Below, piece by piece: positions 1,706-37,188 of a stretch of 37,188 nt of DNA. The DNA is from a virus: the IMG/VR virus record IMGVR_UViG_3300045988_180981, positions 1-37,188 of that record; one strand, 5' to 3'. The position numbers and the translations under genes were made by a program. Under the pieces are notes generated by a model. It made no database searches. It was not told the DNA's origin and was given only the letters and a program-made list of their open reading frames with translations. Within the stretch, counting starts at the first letter, position 1. Every line of letters begins with the position of its first letter.

Positions 1706-2035
1706 TTATTGATTGTCGATTATCGCCTTGATGATGTCCGCGGTGCTCATGCAATCCGCGTTCTTTTCTAGGTATTTGCAAATGTCGTACTTGATGGTTT
1801 CTCCTACTAAGTTTCGGTAGCCAGTCGTCAATACGATGGGGTGCGCTCCTTTTTCATCGGTAATTAGGTAGCAATCGAAGTTCCATCCATAATAACCGCA
1901 ATTGTAGCCGATTTGCTGGACACATCCGCGAGAATGGAGCGCGTTAATCGTGTATTGAAGCGAGCAATACGAGGCGGAGCGGTGCGTTCCGCAAATGTCG
2001 TTCAAGGCTTCTTTTTTCGTTAATTTTAAGTTCAT
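1706..2035 (-). CDS. Small papain-like (C39-like) cysteine peptidase domain protein (~110 aa)
   Basis: Cys motif CGTHRSASYCSLQY (CG..S....L.Y) and His motif HPIVLTTGY (resembles the HYVVL.G of C39 peptidases). AAAGGAG 8 nt before the ATG at 2035. The track ORF extends to 2149 across the hairpin repeat, so it was truncated. Confidence 0.35.
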   Translation of the reverse strand: MNLKLTKKEALNDICGTHRSASYCSLQYTINALHSRGCVQQIGYNCGYYGWNFDCYLITDEKGAHPIVLTTGYRNLVGETIKYDICKYLEKNADCMSTADIIKAIIDNQ

Positions 2036-2055
2036 TTTTTTTACTCCTTTATGAA

Positions 2056-2079
2056 GCCCCCTTTTGTGAGGGTGGGGGC
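2056..2079 (-). promoter_or_regulatory. Copy B of the 29-bp hairpin repeat, directly 5' of the SD and ATG of gene 1706-2035
   Basis: Same 29-mer as copy A, in the same position relative to AAAGGAG and the ATG. Confidence 0.6.
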
Positions 2080-2141
2080 GAACCATGTTTTTAGTCCTCG
2101 TCTTCTTCGTTTTCGTCTTCTTTTCCTCCTTGCCTTTCGGC

Positions 2142-2180
2142 GCTATCATAGTAGCCCTAAGAGCAATCGTAAGTCAACAA
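2142..2180 (-). promoter_or_regulatory. Promoter-like motif TTGACT...TTGCTCTTAGGGCTACTATGAT, related to the AGGGCT family; hexamer spacing is non-canonical
   Basis: Sequence similarity to P3 and P4; resembles CCAAGGGCTATGATAGTGG at 36707-36725 on the plus strand. Confidence 0.25.
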
Positions 2181-3486: not shown

Positions 3487-3945
3487 CTATTCCTTCCGCT
3501 CATTGCGCATGAGTTCATCCCAAACTTCTTGGTCGAACGTGTCGATGGACTTCACCGCCTTGGTTAGATTCCCATTGCGGATGTCGCCAATAGCACCGCT
3601 TTCCATCAATTCCCTCAAAGTCATTTTCGATGGCTTGTTGAAGATGAAGATAGGGCAATCTTTGTTGCACGCTATTCCCATGACGAACTCGCCCACGTTG
3701 CAAATCCCGATGTTGTGGCTACCCATGTTGTCATGGCCGATATTTCCATCGCCAACGTTGTAATCGCCAACGTTGTTCGATCCATAGTTGCCATTGCCTT
3801 TGTTTTGGCTTCCGTGGTTGCAATCGCCATGGTTGCAATCCCCAACGTTGAAGTCTCCCTCGTTCCAAGAGCCGTGGTTGCAATTGCCTCGGTTCTCAAC
3901 GCCCTTGTTGAGAGCGCCTAAGTTGTTGTCTCTAGTCTTGCTCAT
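3487..3945 (-). CDS. Pentapeptide-type beta-solenoid repeat protein: 17 consecutive N-x-G-x-x pentads; candidate DNA-mimic (Qnr/MfpA-like) protein
   Basis: Gly at residues 10,15,...,90 and Asn at 8,13,...,83 without a break. The 15-nt periodicity is also visible in the DNA. Start overlaps the upstream stop (ATGA at 3942-3945). Confidence 0.7.
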   Translation of the reverse strand: MSKTRDNNLGALNKGVENRGNCNHGSWNEGDFNVGDCNHGDCNHGSQNKGNGNYGSNNVGDYNVGDGNIGHDNMGSHNIGICNVGEFVMGIACNKDCPIFIFNKPSKMTLRELMESGAIGDIRNGNLTKAVKSIDTFDQEVWDELMRNERKE

Positions 3946-4427
3946 GCTTTTGAATCCTCCTCAATCGCTTTTTTCTCGCTCATCATTTTCTGGATTCTCC
4001 TCAATAAATCGGGGTGGGTGACAATCACCTCGTCAAAGTCTTCCGCTTCCGCTATCGCGAAGAAGATAGTCCTTGAGCTCAATTGCCTTCCCCATTCTCC
4101 TTCTTTCGGCAAATCCTCGAAATCGACACCTTCCCATTGTGTTGGGTCAAAATCAATGATGGCATGGGTTTTCAAGGTAACTGCTTCGATTGTCCTATCT
4201 TCGTTTCCTCTTTCGTCCGTAGATACGAAAACTTCAGCAATTTTAGTGGAATATGCCCTCATCAAAACGCTTCCATTATTCGCTTTCATGTTTCCCTTAA
4301 CCGTTTCCGCAATGTTGGATTCCGCCTCTTTTGCGAGTTCAAGGGATTCATATTCCCCTTCGAAGAAAGGCTTTTTCGCTCGGCTAATCATATCGCAAGC
4401 GGTCAATACGTATTTGTACATTTTCAA
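3942..4427 (-). CDS. Hypothetical acidic protein (161 aa)
   Basis: Minus-strand ORF, translationally coupled to the pentapeptide-repeat gene. Confidence 0.55.
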   Translation of the reverse strand: MKMYKYVLTACDMISRAKKPFFEGEYESLELAKEAESNIAETVKGNMKANNGSVLMRAYSTKIAEVFVSTDERGNEDRTIEAVTLKTHAIIDFDPTQWEGVDFEDLPKEGEWGRQLSSRTIFFAIAEAEDFDEVIVTHPDLLRRIQKMMSEKKAIEEDSKA

Positions 4428-4432
4428 TTCTC

Positions 4433-4693
4433 CTATAAAGTTTCCTTTTTAGTCCACTTTCTCATTCGGTATCCATTTTGGCAAAGTGTAATGCTCTTCA
4501 ATTCACTTTTTGGGCATAATGCCGACTTTTCAATCAACGAAAGAGCCATATTGTGGATTCCTTCGTAATCATAATCCTCAATCACTACTCTTTTTTCTCC
4601 TTTAAAATCGAGAACTAATGAAAAATATTCCATTTTGTGCAATGCGTCCTCTGCGTCACACGTGCTACTAACTTCCCATAAATCTTCTTTCAC
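4433..4693 (-). CDS. Hypothetical protein (~87 aa); start set at the GTG preceded by AGGAG. An alternative ATG lies at 4720.
   Basis: Track ORF 4433-4774 read in frame. The AGGAG overlaps the stop of the upstream acidic ORF. Confidence 0.45.
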   Translation of the reverse strand: MKEDLWEVSSTCDAEDALHKMEYFSLVLDFKGEKRVVIEDYDYEGIHNMALSLIEKSALCPKSELKSITLCQNGYRMRKWTKKETL

Positions 4694-4704
4694 TTTCAAT
4701 TCTC

Positions 4705-4869
4705 CTATTCGTCTTCCCATAGTTTCGAGTCTCGCCACTCTTCGTATTTGGCATCCTCGTATGGATCTTCCCAATCCTCAAGTTGCGTTCCAAAATCTTC
4801 TTCGTCTTCGTCTTCTTCGTCTAGCAATTCTTCGTCTTCGTCCAACAATTCTTCATCTTTCTTCGGCAT
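4705..4869 (-). CDS. Unannotated 54-aa hyper-acidic protein MPKKDEELLDEDEELLDEEDEDEEDFGTQLEDWEDPYEDAKYEEWRDSKLWEDE; candidate DNA-mimic anti-defence protein
   Basis: Translated by hand from the minus strand. AAGGAGG 8 nt before the ATG at 4869, TAG stop at 4705-4707. Absent from the ORF track because it is under 60 aa. Confidence 0.6.
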   Translation of the reverse strand: MPKKDEELLDEDEELLDEEDEDEEDFGTQLEDWEDPYEDAKYEEWRDSKLWEDE

Positions 4870-4892
4870 TTTCTTGCCTCCTTTTCGATACC

Positions 4893-4917
4893 ATTATAAT
4901 AAGCCCTTAGAGCAAGT
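4893..4917 (-). promoter_or_regulatory. Promoter-like element CTAAGGGCTTATTATAAT: a TATAAT -10 hexamer preceded by the conserved AGGGCT motif; -35 is weak
   Basis: Lies between the methyltransferase stop and the acidic ORF's SD. Confidence 0.4.
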
Positions 4918-4933
4918 GCATCTAATGGATTTT

Positions 4934-6379
4934 TCACAACAATTCTTTGAATATGTCCATCAGCACGTCCACAACGATGGAATCACCGGCGCAATGGTAT
5001 ATGGCAGAATCGCTCATCCCGATGGCGCGCATGGCTTGCTCGTCCTTGTCATTGAACCCCATGAGCCTCATGCATTCCAATGGGGTGAGTTTGCGAAGCT
5101 TCCCTTCGGATTGCGTGACAATGTCGATGGTTGTTTTAATCGTCTGGCTCATTCCGCTTTGCACGGTTCCGCGGTGGTATTGCATTCTCGTTCCACAATC
5201 GATTCCATCCCCTTCCTCGGCTTCTAGGTAACCCTTCTTGGTTGCGTTGCGGACGAGGATCTTCCCCATGAAGAACGGGGAAGTTGTGACACACGTGGAC
5301 AATCCGCCATCGCTGTAAACGCGATTGCCGAGCGATGGCTGCTTTCCATTCACCTTGGGGTTCAGGCATTCGGTGACAACCGTCCACCCAGAATCGAAAG
5401 AACCTTTGGCTTTTAATGTCCTTGCAACTCCCTTCTTCCCCGATTCTATGGAATTTTCGAAATCGCCTTTTCGGTCGAACCCCTTGGAATCTCCATAAAG
5501 CATGGTCTCAATAATTCTTGGGGATAGATTGTATTTTTGATCGGGGTTTTCCTCCAAAAGGTCGCGAAGCCTCTTGACGAGTTTCCTCTTCTTCGGGAAG
5601 TGGTATCCATATTCACCGAGAATGGAGACCATGAACACGCGGAGGCGGTTTTGGGGGATTCCATGGTCTTTGGCATTCACCTTCGCCCAATAGGAAGAAT
5701 ACCCAAGTTCCTCCAAGCGGTCTAGCCACTCGTTCCAAGGCTTGAGGTTTCTATCTCCGCAAACTCCGGGGACGTTCTCCATCAAGAGCACATCTGGCCT
5801 CTGCCCTGCTTCCTTAAGCTCACCGAGAAGCCTTTCGACCTCCCAAAGCAATCCCGACCTTGTGCCGCTACCCTTTTCCATGCCGGCCAATTTCCCCGCT
5901 TGGGAAAGGTCTTGGCATGGAAATGAATAAGTGAGAACGTAGCAATGCTGCCTATCTCCCTCCTTCTCGATGGATAAGCCGCTAGGGTGAATCTCCGAAA
6001 CGTTGGGGCAAAAGTCATTGCACGCGTCCATTGCTCCGCAAAGTTCCTCCAAAGCTTTTCTCCCCAATTTTTCCCTTTCTTCTTCCGATAGTGGGGAATT
6101 GTAATCCTTGGAAACACCGCAAGTTCTTTTTAAAAGTTCTTCCATTGGCGCTTCTTCCCACTTGCCTTTCTCGCACCTCCAGCCATTGTGGATTGCTGCG
6201 TAAGATCTAATGGAGGGAATTGCCCACTCGCACAAGCGCCATCTTTCAAAATCGGCATTGATGTTTTCCAAAGCTTTCGCTTGCGAACCAATACCACCGA
6301 ATAATTCGATGAGGCGGATTGGCTTGTTGATTTTGTATTCTCTTCTGCTTTGGGCGAACAGATTCAATTGCTCGTTCAT
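4934..6379 (-). CDS. DNA (cytosine-5) methyltransferase (orphan MTase, ~481 aa)
   Basis: Motif I LFGGIGS, motif IV SFPCQDLSQAG, motif VI LLMENVPG, motif VIII QNRLRVF, a long variable (TRD) region, then motif IX LTPLECMRLMGF and motif X GDSIVVDVL. Start at MNEQ, with GGAG upstream. Confidence 0.9.
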   Translation of the reverse strand: MNEQLNLFAQSRREYKINKPIRLIELFGGIGSQAKALENINADFERWRLCEWAIPSIRSYAAIHNGWRCEKGKWEEAPMEELLKRTCGVSKDYNSPLSEEEREKLGRKALEELCGAMDACNDFCPNVSEIHPSGLSIEKEGDRQHCYVLTYSFPCQDLSQAGKLAGMEKGSGTRSGLLWEVERLLGELKEAGQRPDVLLMENVPGVCGDRNLKPWNEWLDRLEELGYSSYWAKVNAKDHGIPQNRLRVFMVSILGEYGYHFPKKRKLVKRLRDLLEENPDQKYNLSPRIIETMLYGDSKGFDRKGDFENSIESGKKGVARTLKAKGSFDSGWTVVTECLNPKVNGKQPSLGNRVYSDGGLSTCVTTSPFFMGKILVRNATKKGYLEAEEGDGIDCGTRMQYHRGTVQSGMSQTIKTTIDIVTQSEGKLRKLTPLECMRLMGFNDKDEQAMRAIGMSDSAIYHCAGDSIVVDVLMDIFKELL

Positions 6380-6380
6380 T

Positions 6381-6659
6381 TTACTTGTCTCCAAAATCCC
6401 CGAAATATTCATCGACCCATGTTTTCAATCCCTTTATGATTTCGCGCTTTTTCCTAGCTATTTCCTCATAAGAGCCATTCCCTTTGTTTCCTTGAGGAAC
6501 ATAACTATATTCGGCAAGGCTTTCAATCATCATGTCAATCATGTTGCTAAGCAAATCCAAGTTCTTCACGCTCTCGGAATCATGGTTCGTTTCTCCCCAC
6601 CACGAAGTGTCGGGTATAAGCCTCTTTAAGGCCTCTAGAACAAATTCTTTGTCATTCAT
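6381..6659 (-). CDS. Hypothetical protein (92 aa)
   Basis: Minus-strand ORF packed against its neighbours. Confidence 0.5.
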   Translation of the reverse strand: MNDKEFVLEALKRLIPDTSWWGETNHDSESVKNLDLLSNMIDMMIESLAEYSYVPQGNKGNGSYEEIARKKREIIKGLKTWVDEYFGDFGDK

Positions 6660-6672
6660 TTCCTTTCCTCCT

Positions 6673-7302
6673 TTAAATAAGTCCTACTAATATCATTACG
6701 AAGAATGCAAGGGAAACGGGGCATTCTATCAACGCGATTATCCCGATGATGGAGTTAGGCCTTGGACCTAAGTCAGCGCTTAGGAGAAGTATTCCGCTTG
6801 CCATTGCACATATCCACGTATTGCCAAGTGCCAGAGACGAATCGTGTGTCAATACCGCGGTGACTATTAGCGCAGGGCTTACCAAGAACGTGATGGCGTA
6901 GAGCACCGCGCAAAACACGAAGAACTCCCTTTGCTCCGAATCATCAATGCTCTCCATGAGCACCTTCTTCCTCGCTTCTTGCACTTCCGATAATGTCATG
7001 GTTTTCCAATGGTGCTTCTTCTTCCAACGTTCCAAATAGGGGCGGTAGTCGATCCATGATGGGTAAAACACGTACAATCCCTCGAAAGCGTTCTCAGTAA
7101 TGAGGATGGCTTTGTATACTTGCCACCCACCTCCGCTCAATGGGCACTTGATGTATATCCCCTCTTCCTCTTGGTTCGGGAATACCTTGCACCCATCAAC
7201 GTTCAATCCGAATGCTTTTACGTAATCATCTCTGGTGCGAAGGATTCTTTTGCTTCTCAATATGCGGACTTCCTCACCGAACCTGTTCATTCTCTCTTCC
7301 AT
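6673..7302 (-). CDS. Membrane-anchored hypothetical protein (209 aa): soluble N-terminal domain and about 3 C-terminal TM helices
   Basis: C-terminal hydrophobic stretches; no motif recognised. Confidence 0.5.
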   Translation of the reverse strand: MEERMNRFGEEVRILRSKRILRTRDDYVKAFGLNVDGCKVFPNQEEEGIYIKCPLSGGGWQVYKAILITENAFEGLYVFYPSWIDYRPYLERWKKKHHWKTMTLSEVQEARKKVLMESIDDSEQREFFVFCAVLYAITFLVSPALIVTAVLTHDSSLALGNTWICAMASGILLLSADLGPRPNSIIGIIALIECPVSLAFFVMILVGLI

Positions 7303-7311
7303 TGGTTATTC

Positions 7312-7605
7312 CTATTCTCTTTCGACCGTATATGATTTTGTTAGCGTTCCATCATTCATGATGAATATCTTTTCGATTGTATAACCAGAGCTTTTTAAGC
7401 AATCAGCGATTTCGGAAATTTTTTCTTCCCTTTCTTTTTTTATTTCCGATTCGCTACCAAAAAACAATCCACCGGTAATAACTTCAACAGAAATTTCGTT
7501 TAACTTTTTAAATATTTCGTCTCCAAATTCTTTTATCTCGTTGTTTTGGATGTAGTAGTAATCCAATCCACATGGGTAATCATAAGTTTCAATCAATAGG
7601 TTCAT
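7312..7605 (-). CDS. Hypothetical protein (~97 aa)
   Basis: AAAGGAG 8 nt upstream of the ATG at 7605. Confidence 0.55.
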   Translation of the reverse strand: MNLLIETYDYPCGLDYYYIQNNEIKEFGDEIFKKLNEISVEVITGGLFFGSESEIKKEREEKISEIADCLKSSGYTIEKIFIMNDGTLTKSYTVERE

Positions 7606-9852: not shown

Positions 9853-10202
9853 GGTCTAGCCCTCTTAACGCTTGGGGCTTTTTGCTCAAGGATCTTAATC
9901 CTCTTATTGCCAACTATGTGGTAATGGATTGGCCACTTGGGTGGAATCCCGTGCCCCTTGAACGAAACCGTGCCCAACGGGAATAGGAGAATCGTCTTTG
10001 GGGTCATTTGGATGATTTCCGCATCATAGACCACGTAGCCGGACATTGGGCTTTTTGGACTTGTTCCCATGGACATTCGTACCGCAATCTTGATATATGG
10101 GCTTGTGAGGTCTTTTGGGCCAATGGAAGGAAGGGACTCGAACTCATCGTAAGCTTCTTGCTCAATCCCTTCCCTTTTCGCTCTATCAAATCCCATAGGC
10201 AT
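9846..10202 (-). CDS. Hypothetical protein (118 aa)
   Basis: Minus-strand ORF in operon context. Confidence 0.5.
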   Translation of the reverse strand: MPMGFDRAKREGIEQEAYDEFESLPSIGPKDLTSPYIKIAVRMSMGTSPKSPMSGYVVYDAEIIQMTPKTILLFPLGTVSFKGHGIPPKWPIHYHIVGNKRIKILEQKAPSVKRARPC

Positions 10203-10404
10203 CGAACCCCAGTAAATCTTTGAGAGCTTTGCGCAGAGGGCCGCTCATTTTGAAAACGCTTTTGTCACCATGCTCCAAATGGGTATAGTGGGAAATGGAA
10301 ACCCCAACGGCCTCCGCCACTTGCTCTTGGGTCATTCCCTTTTTTCTACGGGCTTCGGCCAAAGCCTTTCCCCCAAGTTTGTTTTTCTCTTGCAATCCGA
10401 TCAT
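10186..10404 (-). CDS. XRE-family helix-turn-helix transcriptional regulator (72 aa)
   Basis: MTQEQVAEAVGVSISHYTHLEHG is a classic HTH_3 signature; GAGGTGA SD. Confidence 0.8.
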   Translation of the reverse strand: MIGLQEKNKLGGKALAEARRKKGMTQEQVAEAVGVSISHYTHLEHGDKSVFKMSGPLRKALKDLLGFDAYGI

Positions 10405-16645: not shown

Positions 16646-16911
16646 ATATCAACGCTCCTATCCACCCACCAAAGGATGAAAGCCCCCATGCCATAGAGAC
16701 CTAACGCAACGTAGGCCAAGATTGCGTAATCGCTCGTGAACCACTTTAAGACGGCTTCCCAACCATCGAGAAGCCCATAGCCCACCACGAAGCAAGCAAG
16801 GCCGAATATTAGGAAGCACCCCGTTGCTAGGTACGCTATCCATTTTTTCTTTTTGCTTTCCATATTGGCTATGATAGCCCCTAGGCTTTCCCGTTGCAAG
16901 TTTTCTCCCAT
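16642..16911 (-). CDS. Small membrane protein (89 aa, 2 TM helices); first early gene
   Basis: ATGA overlap with the downstream gene; hydrophobic. Confidence 0.5.
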   Translation of the reverse strand: MGENLQRESLGAIIANMESKKKKWIAYLATGCFLIFGLACFVVGYGLLDGWEAVLKWFTSDYAILAYVALGLYGMGAFILWWVDRSVDI

Positions 16912-17220
16912 TTGGTTTCCCCTAGGACAAAAGCACTCTCCCTTAATGGTTTTCTAGGGGAAAGAAAAAAGAGAACGAAAAGAAGGTTCTCTTAAGAATC
17001 TTTTAAGAATAAGTTAGAGTGTTTAATTGAACAATACTTACTCATATATGCAATTGCTTACTATGAACGCAATTAAAAAAGAAATCCGTTACTTTCTTTA
17101 ATCGTGCGCGAAAAAAGCCGTATCCTTTCCAATTCATGAGCAGGAGCGGAGTTGCCCCTTACGGGGCAAAGAACGAACGCGCACGGAAAAAAGAATTTTC
17201 TAACGGACTTTCATGTGGTA

Positions 17221-17302
17221 GTTTTCCACTTTTCCACAAAAGTTTTCCACTTTTCCACATTGAATCAAAAAGTTTTCCACAATAACCAAAAGTTTTCCAC
17301 AT
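17221..17302 (+). promoter_or_regulatory. Cluster of six direct DnaA-box-like 9-mers: TTTTCCACA x4 (match TTATCCACA/TT[AT]TNCACA) and TTTTCCACT x2; candidate origin of replication
   Basis: Copies at 17222-17230, 17230-17238, 17243-17251, 17251-17259, 17273-17281 and 17293-17301. A degenerate GGTTTTCCAT lies at 17337. An adjacent AT-rich stretch (16980-17100) is a possible DNA-unwinding element. Confidence 0.6.
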
Positions 17303-17508
17303 TTGCAAAAATAGTCTCTAGGGGGTCATAGAGAAGGTTTTCCATCACTTGTATTTTCTGGGAAGCCTTTTCGATTTACGGAGGTTGTTTTTAGGGGCGG
17401 TAGCGTTCTTCCGAATGGAATAGTCCTCCATTGATTGAGCGCAAATGCCCAAGAAAGCGTTTTAACGGCCCGTTGAAGCGTTTCGTGACTTCGATGGACA
17501 AATTCCCC

Positions 17509-17542
17509 GTACAAAAGAAAAAGAGGGCTTAAATCGCCCTCT
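17509..17542 (-). terminator. Rho-independent terminator ending the late operon
   Basis: AGAGGGC-7 nt-GCCCUCU (7-bp stem) followed by UUUUUCUUUUU on the minus strand, right after the stop at 17551. Confidence 0.7.
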
Positions 17543-17550
17543 AGAAGGTT

Positions 17551-18108
17551 TTAGTCCACGGGGTGGTATGTTTGCTCTTGGAACTCCTCTTGGACTTTCT
17601 TTTGAATATCGTCTTTGACTTTGTCCTTGATGGTGTCTTTGGTCACCTCTTTGATGGCTTCGTCATAGAGGTCGGCTTTTTCCTTCATGTTTTGGGAAGC
17701 TACGTTGAGGCCTAGCGCCCCGAAGATTCCTAGCGCACCGCAAATCATAATCATGGCAATATCGCCCAAGATGGACGATAGCATGAAGAACACGAACCCA
17801 ACGGCAAGCCACCCAAGGCCGAGAGTTAGCAAACCCGAAGTCTTGGGATTATCATCGTCCTTCTTCTTGCCGATAAGCCAAATCGTCATGCCCATGAGCG
17901 CCATGGCGATAGTTCCGCCCGTGCCAACTTTCCATCCTTCGGGGTTGTAGACGAAGTATTCATCGAAGTTCACCGCCCCGATTACGATGTAGGGGGCGAA
18001 GATTGAGATGAACTCGCTTCCGAAGAGGGTGTACTGCAAAGCGCGGTACTTCCTCTTTTCTTGGCTAGCCGTTAATGGCTTCTTCTGCTTTTTCTGCTTC
18101 TTTTCCAT
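17551..18108 (-). CDS. Polytopic membrane protein (about 4 TM helices, ~185 aa) with a basic N-terminus; holin-like candidate
   Basis: GAGGAGG 9 nt upstream of the ATG at 18108; last late gene. Confidence 0.45.
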   Translation of the reverse strand: MEKKQKKQKKPLTASQEKRKYRALQYTLFGSEFISIFAPYIVIGAVNFDEYFVYNPEGWKVGTGGTIAMALMGMTIWLIGKKKDDDNPKTSGLLTLGLGWLAVGFVFFMLSSILGDIAMIMICGALGIFGALGLNVASQNMKEKADLYDEAIKEVTKDTIKDKVKDDIQKKVQEEFQEQTYHPVD

Positions 18109-37069: not shown

Positions 37070-37188
37070 CCAACATCGCACGCGCACACGGGCGATTTGG
37101 GATTTACGAAGTAAAGCCCATGAAAGTAATGCCACCGCGGAAAAAAGGGAAAAAAATTCGAAGGGGTTGGGTAGCCCCGAAAAAAAGG
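37070..37188. repeat. Right copy of the 119-bp direct terminal repeat. Either genuine terminal redundancy or overlap from a circular or circularly permuted assembly.
   Basis: Identical to 1-119. The window stops where the repeat stops, so the true repeat could be longer. Confidence 0.9.

Follow-up and report, generated by a model that had tools for sequence, protein, structure and literature searches.

A frame of 54 codons on the minus strand of a viral sequence, more than half of which specify aspartate or glutamate, raises two questions: is so short a frame a gene at all and, if so, does its product act as a mimic of DNA? The sequence-only reading of the window, i.e. the whole stretch of 37,188 nucleotides analyzed here, described this acidic ORF as an unannotated early protein of the kind represented by T7 Ocr, T7 Gp5.9 and ArdA, preceded by its own Shine-Dalgarno (SD) sequence and a promoter-like element. 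The two questions turn out to have answers of very different firmness.

Coding status and conservation of the acidic ORF

Minus-strand translation of positions 4705-4869 gives MPKKDEELLDEDEELLDEEDEDEEDFGTQLEDWEDPYEDAKYEEWRDSKLWEDE, identical to the peptide originally quoted. The product (6.7 kDa, net charge -24) contains 29 Asp/Glu among 54 residues (53.7%, close to the initial estimate of about 55%), five Lys/Arg and six aromatic residues. No other ORF of 40 aa or more in the window comes near it in acidity, the runner-up having 26% Asp/Glu. It can be called unannotated only where a 60-aa ORF cut-off is applied, since the gene callers used on public assemblies already call it. The AAGGAGG sequence is present upstream of the ATG, at a distance one nucleotide shorter than the 8 nt first given (Table 1). 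Also the overlap noticed at the other end is seen in the sequence: the TAG stop codon (4707-4705) runs into the AGGAG SD (4706-4702) of the next gene, which starts with the GTG at 4693 after an 8-nt spacer.

Table 1. Features at and around the acidic ORF (window coordinates).
Feature	Position	Strand	Description	Basis
Acidic ORF	4705..4869	-	protein-coding gene, 54 aa, stop codon included	translation and frame-specific selection
N-terminal polyacidic tract	4795..4869	-	codons 1-25; MPKK and DEELLDE repeats; length-variable, predicted disordered	indels, pN/pS 0.20, pLDDT 58-64
C-terminal aromatic-acidic motif	4708..4794	-	FGTQLEDWEDPYEDAKYEEWRDSKLWEDE, codons 26-54; conserved; predicted helix at residues 40-49	alignment, pN/pS 0.12, pLDDT
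Shine-Dalgarno sequence	4877..4883	-	AAGGAGG, 7-nt spacer to the ATG of the acidic ORF	sequence and diversity
-10-like hexamer	4893..4898	-	TATAAT, 23 nt before the ATG, which would give a leader of ~16 nt	sequence
Constrained core cis-element	4900..4916	-	CTTGCTCTAAGGGCTTA, 17 nt, holds the CTWRGGGCTW motif	diversity and motif count
-35-like hexamer	4920..4925	-	TTAGAT, degenerate in the window	alignment; 2/6 matches
Next gene	4433..4693	-	86 aa, GTG start; slot filled by different genes in relatives	ORF and comparison of loci
C5 cytosine DNA methyltransferase	4934..6379	-	481 aa from MNEQ, upstream; ORF extends to 6412	Pfam PF00145, 2e-48
Pentapeptide-repeat protein	3487..3945	-	152 aa, further down the gene string	Pfam PF01469, 3e-19

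Identical copies of the protein are indexed in 39 metagenome-assembly blocks, with samples labelled ZEEV15, XIAO16 and MUNK18, which we take to be human- and animal-gut studies. In addition, there are 35 variant clusters with proteins of 44-61 aa and 78-100% identity. In their alignment 14 columns are invariant and 27 nearly so, most of them in the C-terminal half, where WEDPYEDAKYEEWRDSKLW is invariant in most variants, and all of the length variation falls within the N-terminal acidic tract. At the DNA level the indels between loci are 3, 6 or 15 nt long, all multiples of three, and the N-terminal tract accepts substitutions of Leu by Ser, Phe or Pro. Such indels and substitutions suggest that this tract is constrained in composition and not in structure.

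Selection was assessed by the Nei-Gojobori method on eight loci, six of which had been picked for their differing proteins and two (L016 and L017) had been found via an intergenic DNA motif only, so that the set is biased against purifying selection. In the frame of the acidic ORF, pS was 0.40 and pN 0.062 (pN/pS 0.155), with ratios of 0.20 in the N-terminal tract and 0.12 in the C-terminal motif. The other sense frames gave 1.28 and 1.52 and the antisense frames 1.12, 0.30 and 2.21, the value of 0.30 belonging to the wobble-sharing frame. The ATG is conserved across the loci, and nucleotide diversity in the SD sequence is 0.00 in the divergent loci and 0.018 over all 16 aligned sequences. No Rfam family was found anywhere in the window, nor any tRNA. 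Loss of the reading frame in relatives had been named at the outset as the finding that would speak against a gene; when relatives were compared, the frame proved to be conserved, by its pN/pS as well as by its in-frame indels. Frame-specific selection, in-frame indels, conservation among variants and the blank Rfam scan lead us to regard the coding status as settled: the acidic ORF is almost certainly a real protein-coding gene under purifying selection.

It could still be argued that only the act of translation matters, the ORF feeding ribosomes to the next gene or regulating it through the stop/SD overlap, with a functionless peptide as the by-product. The overlap is indeed kept in nearly all loci, whatever gene comes after. 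However, the SD of the next gene is strong by itself, and constraint at the amino acid level (pN/pS 0.12-0.20), together with the nearly invariant C-terminal motif, is unexpected of a mere leader, which makes this explanation very improbable. The possibility that the frame is open by chance, in GA-rich DNA that is non-coding or antisense, suggested by the shortness and low complexity of the ORF and by the long plus-strand ORFs that overlap it (4635-4910 and 4748-5227), is effectively refuted by the frame-specific selection, the in-frame indels, the SD invariance in divergent loci, the conserved ATG and the blank Rfam scan, the antisense ORFs being the expected stop-free complement of GAA/GAC runs. 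The ORF was also considered as a read-through extension of the upstream methylase; this was ruled out by the coordinates, which place the two in different frames with 64 nt between them.

The upstream element and the genomic setting

The element upstream of the ORF had been described as a TATAAT-containing, promoter-like member of an AGGGCT family. The family stood up well. The motif CTWRGGGCTW occurs in six copies in the window against 0.30 expected, and none of 100 shuffles reached six. Five copies are on the coding (minus) strand, at 16884-16875, 15553-15544, 8763-8754, 4910-4901 and 2161-2152, and all five lie in intergenic gaps between -35-like and -10-like hexamers, two of them after hairpin-plus-T-run terminators; the sixth (9871-9880) is on the plus strand. 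Upstream of the acidic ORF, TATAAT (4898-4893) comes directly after CTAAGGGCTT (4910-4901), and the diversity of the core element is 0.007-0.02 as against 0.24-0.53 in the adjacent spacer (16 aligned sequences) and a pS of about 0.40 in the ORF. Six copies where 0.30 are expected, five of them by -10-like hexamers, support the reality of the family and argue that the acidic ORF heads a unit of its own.

Less of the promoter itself could be recovered. A consensus sigma-70 scan called no promoter at the acidic ORF, and in place of the poorly matching -35-like hexamer of the window the relatives have TTGACT, TTGACG or TTGGCT. From the TTGACT of the relatives the distance is 21 nt to TATAAT, or 18 nt to a TAATAT that overlaps it. 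Both the 4,920 and the 2,175 site carry TTGCTCT(A/T)AGGGCT and an unusual 21-nt gap between the best hexamers. The promoter geometry upstream of the acidic ORF is non-canonical, and the motif may serve as an operator, as an activator site or as a promoter element specific to the phage, with the 72-aa helix-turn-helix (HTH) protein encoded at 10186-10404 (minus strand) as a candidate binder. At the site at 2,175, the mechanically assigned ATG of a 147-aa ORF (1706-2149, minus strand) lies inside the -10-like TATGAT, and the true start of that ORF is probably further downstream, after the AAGGAGG at ~2,120.

Bases 1-119 of the window are duplicated exactly at 37,070-37,188 (119 bp), and the window is therefore the circular assembly of a complete phage genome with a length of 37,069 bp, the related contigs measuring 35-38 kb. 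One strand carries almost all of the genes. Those recognized include the terminase, a Sak-type annealase, a single-stranded DNA-binding protein (SSB) ending in EELSEDDLPF, the 72-aa HTH protein, the C5 methylase, the pentapeptide-repeat protein and RusA; no integrase was recognized among the ORFs scanned. The terminase shares only ~24% identity with its counterparts in Streptococcus and Bacillus phages. Among 50,697 phage records no DNA similarity was found for positions 3900-7400, and tblastn of the acidic peptide against phage records gave no match. The distant terminase relatives, the lack of a DNA match in the phage records and the strong SDs point to a phage, as yet uncultured, that infects a gut member of the Bacillota. 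A host search in 185,579 representative genomes returned no match for the pentapeptide protein or the acidic family. A 640-bp non-coding gap (16911-17551) separates the end of the late genes from the first promoter-like site. It contains about seven copies of TTTTCCAC in iteron-like repeats of 20-21 nt, especially at 17220-17311, and this array is a candidate replication origin or regulatory array.

In a profile search of 1.84 billion representatives the acidic family formed a single 50%-identity cluster, and sampling by DNA motif added just one locus from IMG/VR and one from JGI. The distribution of the family is restricted to this phage lineage. The only other match of the profile search, P0036, was rejected as a distant relative: it is a five-fold repeat protein with an hhalign probability of 1.9%, and its contig (130 kb, sparse, eukaryote-like, with an adjoining reverse-transcriptase fragment) counts against kinship as well.

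In the loci found through the protein, the C5 methylase is followed by a 64-nt spacer, the acidic ORF, variable genes, a gene of ~110 aa, the pentapeptide gene and RusA. The slot after the acidic ORF holds a gene of 86 aa, 105-112 aa, 56-58 aa or 137-145 aa, and sometimes an N6/N4 methyltransferase. In three loci (L005 3776-4534, L013 6328-7087 and L014 6319-7077) this extra N6/N4 DNA methyltransferase, with an ORF of 56-58 aa before it, comes directly after the acidic ORF. The stretch from the acidic ORF to the pentapeptide gene is a gene-exchange hotspot among near-identical phages. The pentapeptide-repeat protein itself shows 92-97% conservation wherever a related locus extends far enough to include it, also where the acidic ORF is missing, and is likewise confined to the lineage (one 90% cluster, 427 sequences). 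DNA mimicry is a property of pentapeptide-repeat proteins such as MfpA and Qnr, and this gene may for that reason be a second gene of the mimic type.

Three loci were sampled independently of the acidic ORF, L025 and L026 via the pentapeptide protein and L029 via the methylase, and all three lack it; the acidic ORF is thus accessory. L025 and L026 keep both flanks (p167, p115, the pentapeptide protein at 96% and RusA at 94%), and in them the methylase, the cis-element and the acidic ORF are missing together. Their cassette slot (L025 1027-2664, L026 1378-3015) is occupied by four genes of 78, 150, 157 and 153 aa, for which no Pfam or PHROG match was found. L029 has a methylase of 80% identity with neither the cis-element nor the acidic ORF. 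Conversely, L011 and L012 retain the cis-element, the SD and the acidic ORF despite a methylase devoid of motif I and the catalytic PCQ. Among 59 distant methylase loci, none had a small ORF with at least 35% Asp/Glu on the methylase strand, which rules out a general methylase-plus-acidic-ORF module. Absence from L025, L026 and L029, retention in L011 and L012 and the 0/59 count indicate that the element, the SD and the ORF form a discrete accessory cassette, usually located by the methylase and not dependent on it.

Some further features of these loci deserve mention. L011 and L012 are the most divergent lineage, and their C5 methylase is an N-terminally truncated remnant (L011 5489-5959, L012 5042-5959). 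Upstream they carry a PAPS-reductase-family gene (PF01507; L011 1698-2300, L012 1213-1776), which may indicate a different DNA-modification strategy. A 209-aa protein without a family match (6673-7302, minus strand), whose hydrophobic C-terminal half is probably membrane-spanning, is often found together with the methylase cassette; the window has it, as do at least eight fetched loci (L001-L006, L011 and L014, for example), and L025 and L026 lack it.

Predicted structure and comparison with known acidic proteins

AlphaFold2 with the family alignment gave a model of the acidic protein with a mean pLDDT of 68.6 and a pTM of 0.28, in which residues 40-49 make up the sole helix. Confidence is about 82 for residues 31-50 and 58-64 for residues 1-30, and there is no secondary structure in residues 1-35. 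The alignment is shallow, which makes the model weak evidence, in agreement with the sequence all the same: the protein is predicted to be mostly disordered, with one short helix. The hydrophobic moments are low, leaving no obvious docking face on the predicted helix, and an amphipathic docking helix was discarded on these grounds. A surrogate for the SSB tail was ruled out as well, since the phage SSB has its own acidic end.

Orphan small acidic genes are common in phage genomes, and none of the homology searches gave this one a family. A Pfam scan at E <= 10 returned only a sub-threshold DUF6271, PHROGs contained no family for it, and hmmsearch with the family profile gave 0 hits at E <= 10 against 177,635 PDB sequences, and thus none to a solved DNA mimic or anti-CRISPR. 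Foldseek, queried with the low-confidence, mostly disordered model, gave 0 hits in the PDB, which with such a model is uninformative. By BLASTP there was no significant match to T7 Ocr (E = 0.12, over 11 residues), T7 Gp5.9 (E = 18), SPO1 Gp46 (E = 32) or SPO1 Gp44 (E = 40). No fusion proteins containing the acidic ORF were found among the variant clusters or in the profile search of 1.84 billion representatives. The proposed kinship with Ocr, ArdA and Gp5.9 therefore received no support from Pfam, PDB profiles or BLASTP, and a rigid, folded protein with the shape of DNA is not what the model predicts.

Comparison with the individual proteins leads to the same point. Ocr is a folded helical protein of ~116 aa, the dimer of which mimics bent B-DNA. 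The net charges are similar (-28 in Ocr, -24 here), and competition with DNA is the presumed common principle, for ArdA too. However, Ocr and ArdA, inhibitors of type I restriction-modification enzymes (and, for Ocr, of BREX), are rigid B-DNA mimics, whereas the acidic ORF encodes a product at most half their size, with no predicted DNA-shaped scaffold: its 54 residues include only the ten of the predicted helix, which is no Ocr-type fold, and neither Pfam nor the PDB-chain profile search (0 hits) places it in ArdA. T7 Gp5.9, the RecBCD inhibitor, is of nearly the same length (52 aa), is acidic and is also encoded among replication and recombination genes away from the leading end of the genome; the acidic ORF lies between the Sak/SSB module and RusA, a likeness in size and setting that is resemblance only and does not define a family. 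Gp5.9 is a folded helical dimer, and Ocr is folded too, in contrast to the mostly disordered protein predicted here. The Asp/Glu contents also differ, with 54% in the acidic ORF as against 29% in Ocr and 25% in Gp5.9.

The closest analogue, and the best precedent in kind, is the acidic disordered tract of SPO1 Gp44 (residues 56-122). This central domain is 57% Asp/Glu and disordered, with scattered Trp, Tyr and Phe, and it too comes from a Bacillota phage; the acidic ORF likewise combines at least 50% Asp/Glu with predicted disorder (low pLDDT over residues 1-35), as expected of a disordered polyacidic protein. The Gp44 domain has been described as a flexible mimic of ssDNA, with RNA polymerase beta/beta' as its binding partner (PMC8208478). 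The tract of Gp44 is, however, embedded in a protein of 237 aa whose N-terminal domain is folded and binds DNA; the acidic protein, in contrast, is free-standing and has a conserved C-terminal motif, and 54 residues leave no room for the Gp44 architecture of an N-terminal DNA-binding domain, an acidic tract and a C-terminal domain. TifA of the enterococcal phage phi47 is similar in being a small electronegative orphan of a Bacillota phage with homologs only in close relatives. It binds type IV restriction enzymes directly and thereby inhibits them, and its authors stop short of classing it as a strict DNA mimic (PMC11322646). By its published description TifA has 21% acidic residues and is predicted to adopt an SH3-like fold, in contrast to the 54% and the disorder of the acidic ORF.

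A type II antitoxin, i.e. the small acidic first gene of a two-gene operon, was also considered; a fixed downstream toxin partner inherited with the ORF is lacking, the gene in that place varying by locus. Judged from its sequence, the acidic ORF represents a new orphan family among small acidic phage accessory proteins, unrelated to the known DNA-mimic families. What sets it apart is mainly the extreme density of its charge, along with disorder and a minimal size.

Possible functions of the acidic protein

We infer DNA mimicry by the acidic protein from its composition, and extreme acidity alone is weak evidence for such a function. With this in mind, it seems quite possible, though short of probable, that the protein serves as a nucleic-acid-like charge decoy on a nucleic-acid-binding protein. 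The nearly invariant C-terminal segment with its short helix would dock on a conserved nucleic-acid-binding protein, and the length-variable Asp/Glu tract would then occupy the positively charged DNA- or RNA-binding surface of this partner in competition with nucleic acid. The peptide would thus be a flexible charge decoy and not a rigid look-alike of B-DNA. As the target, a host end-processing nuclease of the AddAB/RecBCD type would be our first candidate, because the phage has its own Sak/SSB/RusA set, a situation comparable to that of T7 Gp5.9 among DNA-metabolism genes. A restriction enzyme of type I or type IV would come second, and third place would go to RNA polymerase or to a nucleoid protein, by analogy with SPO1 Gp44 and Gp46.

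Several observations support the decoy reading. The composition (54% Asp/Glu, net charge -24) is joined with disorder and one confident short helix, and conservation is in two parts, the N-terminal tract tolerating even Pro and the C-terminal motif being nearly invariant. TifA sets a precedent for a small electronegative phage protein that inhibits a restriction enzyme directly. A host-interaction accessory gene would be expected from a unit that is present or absent as a block and is the first gene after its own promoter-like element. The setting also fits an anti-defence reading, with the ORF opening a variable stretch that includes one or two methyltransferases and the pentapeptide protein. 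Against the decoy stand the lack of homology to any characterized mimic, the lack of a usable fold and a position that is not demonstrably early: the first promoter-like sites are ~12 kb upstream of the gene, which closes the replication/recombination module at its distal end, and the original designation of the protein as early received no support. Anti-defence genes are often under diversifying rather than purifying selection, which counts against the decoy as well. The nearly invariant C-terminus points to a conserved partner, and this could equally be a phage protein.

Such a phage-internal partner is a serious rival given the strong purifying selection on the motif, which suits a partner inherited together with the acidic ORF. 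The peptide would then regulate, chaperone or inhibit a basic DNA-handling protein encoded by the phage itself, be it the C5 methylase, RusA, the Sak annealase or the pentapeptide protein, and keep it away from DNA until it is required. The methylase would be the obvious choice by position: the acidic ORF usually comes directly after it, 80%-identity alleles included, and the two loci without a methylase, L025 and L026, have no acidic ORF either. No candidate partner, however, co-varies perfectly with the acidic ORF in the loci compared. L011 and L012 keep the ORF, the SD and the cis-element beside a methylase without motif I and PCQ, L029 has a methylase and no acidic ORF, and in L025 and L026, from which the ORF is gone, RusA and the pentapeptide protein are retained with 94-96% identity. 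In addition, there are no fusion proteins, and none of the 59 distant methylase loci has an acidic mini-ORF. Altogether we consider an internal partner unlikely, yet well worth keeping in mind.

The same neighborhood invites a special case of the decoy, in which a self-methylating phage needs an inhibitor of McrBC/GmrSD-type enzymes and the acidic protein is this anti-type-IV factor, a functional analogue of TifA or of T4 Arn/IPI*. Its place immediately downstream of the C5 methylase in most loci and its absence together with the methylase in L025 and L026 agree with this, and TifA is a small electronegative type IV inhibitor in a Bacillota phage (PMC11322646). The idea is weakened by L011 and L012, where the ORF is kept beside a dead methylase remnant, and by the methylase-positive L029, where it is missing; nor was the pairing of methylase and acidic ORF met with in the 59 other phage loci. 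We regard it as improbable.

Returning to the decoy in its general form, the protein might be a free-standing minimal inhibitor, a disordered polyanion whose aromatic-acidic anchor delivers the tract onto a host DNA-processing or defence enzyme. It would then be a "portable acidic tail", a mobile unit of element, SD and ORF among gut Bacillota phages, a proposal that we consider possible but doubtful.

Of the initial interpretation as a DNA mimic, a real and selected gene with its own SD and a conserved cis-element has been retained, while membership in the known mimic families, a folded mimic and early expression have found no support. The acidic ORF is well supported as a gene, and the function suggested for it is a reasonable guess, poorly constrained. 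If the decoy reading is true, some 50 residues of disordered charge with a short anchor motif would suffice to inhibit a DNA-binding enzyme. Structure-based screens for anti-defence proteins would miss such proteins, which offer no fold to match, and the acidic protein would be a compact tool for blocking a nuclease or a restriction system in gut Bacillota.
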